The position numbers and the translations under genes were made by a program. The notes beneath the pieces are model-generated. The model did not search any database and was not told the origin of the DNA. It was given only the letters and a program-made list of their open reading frames with translations. Positions 7,571 to 11,745 of a stretch of DNA of 11,745 nt are shown piece by piece (position 1 is the first letter of the stretch; the number at the start of each line of letters is the position of its first letter). The DNA is taken from UHGV virus genome UHGV-1592390; one strand, given 5' to 3'. The stretch comes from a virus.

Positions 7571-10367
<2,797 letters not shown>

Positions 10368-10371
10368 CCAC

Positions 10372-10405
10372 CAAAAATAACCCCGGCGGCTGCCGGGGTT
10401 CTCGT
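10372..10405. terminator. Bidirectional intrinsic terminator between convergent pro (+) and lyz/orf84 (-) transcripts
   Basis: Perfect 7-bp GC stem CCCCGGC (10381-10387), loop GGCT, GCCGGGG (10392-10398). On the minus strand it is followed by TTATTTTTGG (strong U-tract); on the plus strand it is preceded by an A-tract and followed by the weaker TTCTCGTT. Lies 14 nt after the pro stop and 14 nt after the orf84 stop. Confidence 0.7.
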
Positions 10406-10411
10406 TAACTA

Positions 10412-10666
10412 TTATCGCCTTCGCCTGCGTGCCATATATTTGCGCACCGCGCGGCGTGGACAATCTGAAGCGGTTTCTTTCTGCTGCATCAATCTTGCAG
10501 CCATGCTCAAAAATGTCAGGCACAGCCGAAGCCCGGCATACAATAGCGGTTCCAGTGGCCACGTCTCATTGAGCACATATACCGCCATGAAAATCGAGTC
10601 AAAAACTATCGCCGCCAGCGATAACTTCATTGTCGAAAGTCGGCGGAGCTGCCGGAGTTTATTCAT
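10412..10666 (-). CDS. Hypothetical 84-aa small membrane protein, translationally coupled to lyz; holin-like features
   Basis: ATG at 10666-10664 overlaps the lyz stop (ATGAATAA arrangement). One clear hydrophobic segment (LSLAAIVFDSIFMAVYVL), a second weaker one, and a strongly basic C-terminus (RRAVRKYMARRRRR). Ends 14 nt before the terminator hairpin. Codon usage looks ordinary. No homology could be checked. Confidence 0.4.
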   Translation of the reverse strand: MNKLRQLRRLSTMKLSLAAIVFDSIFMAVYVLNETWPLEPLLYAGLRLCLTFLSMAARLMQQKETASDCPRRAVRKYMARRRRR

Positions 10667-11216
10667 TGACCAGTCCCGTCAGGCAAAGCTGGCGTTCTTT
10701 TTCACGGCGAATCTTTAAACCTCGCAGGGGCACGCCGTTACTGTTCACGAAATCAGGGAGATGGTTACACATATTCACCCATTCCCCTTTCTGCGCCCAC
10801 TTGTGGATGGACGTTTCTACTCGCATGCCTCGCGCTTTGCTGTAGTAGGTCCGTAAGCTATTGCATCCCATATTGAATGCCGCGCTTGTCATTGCACTGA
10901 AGGCATTATCGGGCATGTCTTTGCCCCGGAAGTGCTGATTAATACAGCGTTCAGCGATCAGGATATTCTTTTCCCAATCAGCGGCGATTTGCTGGTCTGT
11001 TTTTCGCACACCCGGCGTTACCCCGTGTGTATTACCGATCCCGTCAGTCCATACCCCTGCCGGGCACATGTATGGATCACGTCGGCAACCTTCAGCGTTA
11101 CCAATCAGCTCAAGCCCCGCCTGGTTGGTTCGCACATTGCCATTACCCATCACGATGGTAATCATCACCGCGATAGCGCAAATTGCACCGCCTCCTGCGG
11201 CTGTTTTTCCCTTCAT
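10659..11216 (-). CDS. lyz: SAR (signal-arrest-release) endolysin, P1 Lyz, 185 aa
   Basis: From ATG 11216-11214 (GAGGT Shine-Dalgarno 5 nt upstream) the translation begins MKGKTAAGGGAICAIAVMITIVMGNGNVRTN..., with the N-terminal SAR transmembrane segment containing Cys13, then E42 and the Cys44/Cys51 pair (NAEGCRRDPYMC) characteristic of P1 Lyz as I recall it. The ORF track's longer 218-aa version adds an in-frame 33-aa extension with no ribosome-binding site. Confidence 0.93.
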   Translation of the reverse strand: MKGKTAAGGGAICAIAVMITIVMGNGNVRTNQAGLELIGNAEGCRRDPYMCPAGVWTDGIGNTHGVTPGVRKTDQQIAADWEKNILIAERCINQHFRGKDMPDNAFSAMTSAAFNMGCNSLRTYYSKARGMRVETSIHKWAQKGEWVNMCNHLPDFVNSNGVPLRGLKIRREKERQLCLTGLVNE

Positions 11217-11299
11217 AAAGACCTCATAAGCGAATTTTTTACGCTCCAGGACAAACACCCATTCACAGCCAATACCGACTGACTCGATCCCTTTAGAAG

Positions 11300-11326
11300 A
11301 CACAGGATAATGCAAATCACTTGTTA
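11300..11326 (-). promoter_or_regulatory. Candidate late promoter for lyz (shared box plus -10-like hexamer)
   Basis: On the lyz-sense strand: TAACAAGTGA (complement of 11317-11326), 4 nt, then CATTAT (complement of 11307-11312). Same decamer and geometry as upstream of prt. Predicted start near 11300, about 84 nt upstream of the lyz ATG. Confidence 0.35.
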
Positions 11327-11385: not shown

Positions 11386-11670
11386 GTGGCACAACGCGGT
11401 GTAAACAAAGTCATCCTGATTGGTACCCTGGGGCAAGACCCGGAGATCAGGTATATACCAAATGGCGGAGCAGTCGGAAGACTCAGCATCGCAACGAATG
11501 AATCATGGCGCGACAAGCAAACGGGCCAACAGAAAGAGCAAACAGAATGGCATAAAGTCGTTTTGTTCGGAAAACTTGCTGAAATTGCGAGTGAGTATTT
11601 ACGAAAAGGTTCTCAGGTCTACATCGAAGGGAAACTTAAAACCCGTAAGTGGACAGATGACGCCGGTGTA
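11386..11670 (+). pseudogene. ssb: Single-stranded DNA-binding protein gene, 5' portion only (codons 1-95), disrupted by IS1
   Basis: GTG start at 11386 with an AGGTAAG Shine-Dalgarno-like sequence upstream. Translation [95 protein letters not shown] aligns with the N-terminal OB-fold of E. coli SSB ([31 protein letters not shown]...KWTDQSG). After codon 95 the frame runs into IS1 sequence and is open to the window edge; the rest of the OB-fold, the Gly-rich linker and the acidic C-terminal tail are missing. Not in the ORF track because no stop occurs in-window. Confidence 0.85.
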
Positions 11671-11745
11671 GGTAATGACTCCAACTTATTGATAGTGTTT
11701 TATGTTCAGATAATGCCCGATGACTTTGTCATGCAGCTCCACCGA
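11671..11745 (-). mobile_element. IS1 terminal fragment (IRR / insB-distal end); element body continues downstream of the window
   Basis: GGTAATGACTCCAACTTATTGATAGTG... from 11671 is the IS1 right inverted repeat and adjacent sequence, read as the reverse complement of the canonical orientation. Same orientation as the IS1 end at 1..74. Confidence 0.9.

Follow-up and report, generated by a model that had tools for sequence, protein, structure and literature searches.

The small gene overlapping the 3' end of lyz in a P1-family genome is lydD, very probably encoding a pinholin that serves the SAR endolysin Lyz

Introduction

In the P1-family element analysed here, an open reading frame (ORF) of 84 codons that follows and overlaps the endolysin gene lyz is lydD, the second gene of the late lyz operon of phage P1; the whole reading, in which its product acts as a pinholin together with the SAR endolysin Lyz, has a probability of about 0.93. 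The ORF lies in virus genome UHGV-1592390, a stretch of 11,745 nucleotides that is called the window below and to which all coordinates refer unless the P1 record is named. The gene is already known: the annotation of the P1 reference record includes it, and its product was recognised as a pinholin by experiment in 2022. A sequence-only reading of the window had proposed that the ORF encodes an unannotated small membrane protein, similar to the class II holins or pinholins that partner SAR endolysins, and that it would add a further lysis-associated protein to those of P1. The functional half of this interpretation agrees with the published experiments, in which LydD behaves as the pinholin partner of Lyz (PMC9025707). 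The premise of novelty does not hold, as record NC_005856 has both lydD and lydE annotated between pro and lyz, and LydD already belongs to the known lysis set of P1, formed by Lyz, LydA, LydB, LydC and LydD. The function of lydD was thus read correctly from the letters, and the error was limited to prior knowledge.

Identity of the open reading frame

10412..10666, minus strand: lydD coding sequence, 84 codons plus a TAA stop, ATG start; P1 pinholin, assigned by the ORF listing, identity to YP_006483.1, PHROG 21930 and purifying selection

The ORF is present as it had been described, on the minus strand and with an ATG start, and its translation gives a product of 84 amino acids, MNKLRQLRRLSTMKLSLAAIVFDSIFMAVYVLNETWPLEPLLYAGLRLCLTFLSMAARLMQQKETASDCPRRAVRKYMARRRRR. 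By protein comparison this product is identical at 84/84 positions (100%) to YP_006483.1 of P1, which is encoded by P1_gp014 (lydD, 20078..20332 in NC_005856) and annotated as 'holin; putative holin'. PHROG 21930, also named 'holin', matches LydD over positions 1-84 of 84 with an E value of 9.3e-59, while no NCBIfam model matches LydD or LydE, and a Pfam scan of LydD at E <= 1 returned DUF7940 as its sole match, below threshold. At the DNA level, a 501-nt region containing lydD is 99.4% identical to phage P1, with three base differences from NC_005856, two of them synonymous in lydD and one located in the loop of the terminator described below. The window comes from a P1-family element and is about 98.5% identical to P1 over its full length, and the placement of lydD relative to lyz and pro is the same as in P1. 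PMC9025707 credits the P1 genome paper of Lobocka et al. 2004 (its ref. 40) with the prediction that LydC and LydD have the features of holins.

Elsewhere in the window, at 11386..11745 (plus strand), the ssb gene starts with a GTG at 11386 and is cut at about 11671, where an IS1 terminal repeat (GGTAATGACTCC...) follows immediately. The junction lacks 1289 bp of NC_005856 (21337..22625, comprising the 3' part of ssb and isaA), which suggests either a deletion next to IS1 or an IS1 inserted at another site.

Organization of the lyz operon

10659..11216, minus strand: lyz, SAR endolysin, 185 amino acids from the ATG at 11216; Pfam Phage_lysozyme, E 2e-22; lyz in NC_005856 (20325..20882)
10659..10666, minus strand: lyz/lydD overlap, 8 nt, AATGAATAA, read from the sequence
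10369..10400, minus strand: intrinsic terminator at the end of the lyz-lydD operon, with its stem at 10400..10379 and a T-run after it; from a terminator scan and RNA folding
11304..11322, minus strand: late promoter LPlyz, -10 TATCCT, -22 box AAGTGATTT; 20969..20987 in NC_005856, identical sequence found in the window

LydD is encoded in the same orientation as lyz, downstream of the annotated LPlyz and upstream of the terminator. The N-terminus of Lyz, MKGKTAAGGGAICAIAVMITIVMG, is hydrophobic and rich in Gly and Ala (KD15 2.44), as in SAR-type endolysins. The lyz 5' leader carries an A-run (11236..11241) that differs in length by one base from NC_005856 (aaaaaa against aaaaa). It had been stated that lydD starts inside the lyz stop codon; the ATG (10666..10664) instead overlaps the final pair of lyz sense codons (AAT GAA), the lyz TAA being 10661..10659, in the arrangement GTC A-ATG-AA-TAA, which gives the 8-nt overlap. 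The same overlap is found in the P1 record, and the junction ATGAATAA is also present in two divergent homologues (L082 and L084). Because the only Shine-Dalgarno (SD)-like signal upstream of lydD is a weak GGGA at -11..-8, translation of lydD is probably started by coupling to the end of lyz through this overlap.

The claim that the ORF ends just before a strong intrinsic terminator is borne out. The stem has nine pairs, seven of them G-C, is followed by ATTTTT and begins 11 nt past the lydD stop, with a folding energy of -20.5 kcal/mol (z = -2.96), and it lies where the pro and lyz operons converge. Overlap with lyz and terminator, the arrangement that places the gene in the P1 LydD group, are therefore both seen in the window, and the same arrangement recurs in divergent homologues. 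For pro itself (9318..10367, plus strand), the RefSeq record NC_005856 gives 'tail fiber protein' against an original note of 'head processing...', and the RefSeq label looks like an annotation-transfer error.

Coding constraint on lydD and on the overlapping lydE

10347..10562, minus strand: lydE, annotated 'putative antiholin', GTG start, 71 amino acids, in the +2 frame over the 3' part of lydD; 20013..20228 in NC_005856

A sample of 80 P1-family loci from IMG/VR, representing 41 nucleotide alleles of lydD, was used to examine constraint on the reading frame. The frame is intact in every locus (80/80), the distinct variants are 31 synonymous against 4 non-synonymous, and the length varies solely through the loss of whole Arg codons from the C-terminal run (3 to 5 Arg). 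This run (10412..10426, minus strand), with alleles RRR, RRRR, RRRRR, RRRSR and RRRKR produced by in-frame codon indels and point changes, is the sole noticeably variable part of LydD among close relatives. More divergent homologues of 84 amino acids share 75-83% protein identity and 68-74% DNA identity with lydD; the corresponding pN is 0.13-0.17 and pS 0.69-0.79, that is, a pN/pS of about 0.2 or lower with synonymous divergence at saturation. In the other two frames of the same alignments pN is equal to or greater than pS, and stop codons are present. lydD is a real coding gene, and the conservation pattern that had been put forward as a check, an intact frame across the P1 family with a synonymous bias, is what the loci and the homologues display.

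These data bear directly on the possibility that the frame is open by chance, within a 3' untranslated region that follows lyz. Such a frame could be suspected from the weakness of the GGGA signal and from the lack of an above-threshold model in Pfam and NCBIfam, but it would not be expected to show a 31:4 synonymous excess, 80/80 intact frames with in-frame indels only, a pN/pS of about 0.2 or lower, 84-residue homologues in other genera and mutant phenotypes such as those published for lydD (PMC9025707). A chance frame was rejected on the conservation pattern, and its probability is negligible.

The annotated lydE behaves differently. Across the same 80 loci its distinct variants are 33 non-synonymous against 5 synonymous, many alleles are truncated (11, 50, 63 or 67-70 amino acids), and in divergent relatives the frame is broken by stop codons. 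The lydE ORF also traverses the terminator hairpin and runs into the 3' end of pro. Removal of lydE gave no phenotype (PMC9025707). Because signs of coding constraint are lacking and a phenotype is absent from the published work, lydE is probably not a functional gene but a spurious annotation, a result of use to annotators who meet it under the name 'putative antiholin'.

Predicted membrane features of LydD

The hydrophobic segments and polybasic C-terminus noticed in the sequence-only reading correspond to two stretches of unequal strength and a terminal RRRRR. Residues 15-33 are clearly hydrophobic (mean KD19 1.89; Kyte-Doolittle, 19 residues), whereas the second stretch, at about residues 38-59, is weaker (KD19 maximum 1.4) and includes R47 and R58; since this segment is only moderately hydrophobic, the topology with two transmembrane domains (TMDs) is a prediction. 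The N-terminus is basic, with four positive charges in residues 1-12, and nine Arg/Lys lie in residues 71-84, which fits the basic C-terminus of class II holins. An AF2 model built from a five-sequence alignment has two helices with a break at 36-39, at low confidence (pLDDT 66, pTM 0.30). Hydropathy and this low-confidence model both agree with a helical hairpin that has its break at W36-P40.

Homologues and the link to DUF7940

A word-indexed protein search with LydD gave eight clusters, among which the exact P1 cluster was absent from the list. The distant homologues of 84 amino acids come from records or assemblies of Enterobacteriaceae, Salmonella and Klebsiella aerogenes, and in P1-like phage-plasmids they directly follow a Phage_lysozyme gene, whose 3' end they overlap. 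Their neighbours on the downstream side are a convergent ProQ-like gene and RepL, not pro. All four close 84-residue homologues (4/4) adjoin lysozymes with SAR-like N-termini. Three rare single-record variants (P0005, P0006 and P0008) are frameshifted into the lydE frame, and one GenBank record names a LydD homologue 'putative antiholin'.

A profile of the LydD clade, made from five proteins, was compared with 1.84 billion representative proteins and found only 14 hits, which include small proteins of 54-82 amino acids with E values of 8e-18 to 4e-4. Six of the seven small matches that were scanned (P0009-P0015) are above-threshold members of DUF7940 (36-50 bits) and also match PHROG 1356 'holin'; the seventh (P0020) matches PHROG 21930 only. 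LydD itself aligns to DUF7940 (PF25612) over profile positions 7-63 of 63 with 22.8 bits and E 1.4e-4, below the gathering score of 27. On these profile comparisons LydD is best called a divergent relative of DUF7940. The genomic context of the relatives of 72-82 amino acids was read at five loci (L090-L094), and in 4/5 the gene lies directly after, and overlaps, a Phage_lysozyme gene whose product has a SAR-like N-terminus. In two of the relatives' loci the next gene belongs to DUF2570 or DUF2514, which are spanin-like families. Pfam still calls DUF7940 a family of 'unknown function', although its members sit in cassettes of endolysin and spanin genes, and PHROGs call it 'holin'; experiments on LydD could serve to annotate DUF7940.

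Published function of LydD

LydD was studied by Bednarek et al. 2022, who concluded that it is a pinholin (PMC9025707). With lyz and lydD together on a plasmid, lysis of E. coli was quicker and more complete than with lyz by itself, lydD single mutants were delayed in lysis, and plaques were formed by a lydA lydC double mutant but not by a lydA lydD double mutant (PMC9025707). In liquid culture of E. coli, LydD alone could not replace LydA (PMC9025707). The label 'pinholin' for lydD is repeated in later work of that group (PMC10067587). In a genome-wide CRISPRi screen lyz was essential, while lydD and lydE were non-essential (PMC10695390), which for lydD fits an accessory role.

The same experiments distinguish the pinholin from a canonical class II holin that would open large, non-specific holes. 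A canonical holin would agree with the two predicted hydrophobic helices and the basic C-terminus, which are as in class II holins, and with the plain label 'holin' in GenBank, RefSeq and PHROG. LydD fails, however, with the soluble lambda R endolysin in both settings: in P1 phages in which lyz was replaced by R, lydD contributed nothing, and in a two-plasmid system LydD with R gave no lysis, although cfu fell (PMC9025707). Time-lapse observation adds that wild-type P1 lyses with the morphology of the SAR-endolysin/pinholin type and that a lydC lydD mutant changes to the canonical type (PMC9025707). Adjacent SAR-like lysozymes in most of the relatives (4/5 of those with 72-82 residues and 4/4 of the close 84-residue homologues) also argue against it. 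We regard a canonical holin as very unlikely.

Even less likely is that LydD is mainly a regulator and not a pore former, be it as an antiholin, as an antipinholin or by adjusting the timing of LydA/LydC. Its four positive N-terminal charges might be read in this way, as added N-terminal charges turn S21 into an inhibitor (PMC9025707, discussion), and so might the 'putative antiholin' label of one homologue and the dispensability of lydD under CRISPRi (PMC10695390). On the other hand, LydD kills cells when expressed by itself (PMC9025707), and lydD mutants lyse late, not early. Both the canonical holin and the antiholin readings were rejected on the published phenotypes (PMC9025707).

Proposed mechanism

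As a pinholin, LydD may be pictured as follows. lydD is transcribed together with lyz from LPlyz and is probably translated by coupling to the end of lyz through the 8-nt overlap. The product is a small inner-membrane protein with a basic N-terminus, two predicted hydrophobic helices (about residues 15-33 and 38-59) and a polybasic tail that is predicted to face the cytoplasm. As it builds up in the membrane, LydD would produce small lesions and thereby depolarisation, upon which the membrane-tethered Lyz would be released and activated; the lesions would be too small for a soluble canonical endolysin to pass. In P1, LydD works beside two unlinked canonical holins, LydA and LydC, and an antiholin, LydB, and its weight varies with the host and the growth conditions.

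LydD might also have a dual start like those of lambda S107/S105 and S21 71/68, in which the 84-residue form from Met1 would be an antipinholin, its four N-terminal charges keeping TMD1 in the membrane, and a 72-residue form from Met13 the active pinholin. Met1 and Met13 (codon 13, 10628..10630, minus strand, ahead of TMD1) are invariant in five P1-like homologues. The sequence before the Met13 ATG (CTCCGCCGACTTTCGACA) contains nothing SD-like, and in more distant DUF7940 relatives the equivalent residue is L, I or V. We consider a dual start unlikely, but if it were true it would supply the missing regulator, which lydE apparently is not.

Comparison with known lysis systems

The nearest counterparts of the LydD encoded in the window are those of P1 and P7 (PHROG 21930), with the same protein, position, 8-nt overlap with lyz and terminator, and with nothing of substance that differs. 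The proteins of DUF7940 and PHROG 1356 share with LydD a common core, (D/E)xxF...NE(T/S/K)(W/F)P..P..Y..(L/I)R..LT..SM.AR, but are without the extended polybasic tail, and their genes are followed by spanin-like genes whereas the spanins of P1 are unlinked.

In phage 21 the pinholin gene lies upstream of the endolysin gene, unlike lydD, which lies downstream of it. As expected of a pinholin gene, lydD is adjacent to the gene of a SAR endolysin, since it overlaps lyz. S21-68 of lambdoid phage 21, the prototype pinholin and partner of the SAR endolysin R21, resembles LydD in being small, in its two hydrophobic helices, which for LydD are predicted, in its basic C-terminus, and in the position of its gene beside that of a SAR endolysin; like LydD, it serves a SAR but not a canonical endolysin (PMC9025707). 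The two proteins show no detectable homology (DUF7940 was the only Pfam match of LydD at E <= 1, and NCBIfam gave none). LydD further differs in the four positive charges of its 12-residue N-terminus, much more basic than that of S21 and odd for a pinholin, in a TMD2 that is without a glycine zipper, and in that no dual-start antiholin has been demonstrated for it (PMC9025707). Because of the missing sequence match, the absence of a glycine zipper and the more basic N-terminus, the pore mechanism of LydD may differ from that of S21. Within P1, LydA and LydC, canonical holins of class II type, are unrelated to LydD in sequence, have their genes in unlinked operons and, unlike LydD, can serve the canonical R endolysin; they share with LydD, whose two TMDs are predicted, the build of small two-TMD proteins that cooperate with Lyz in the same phage (PMC9025707).
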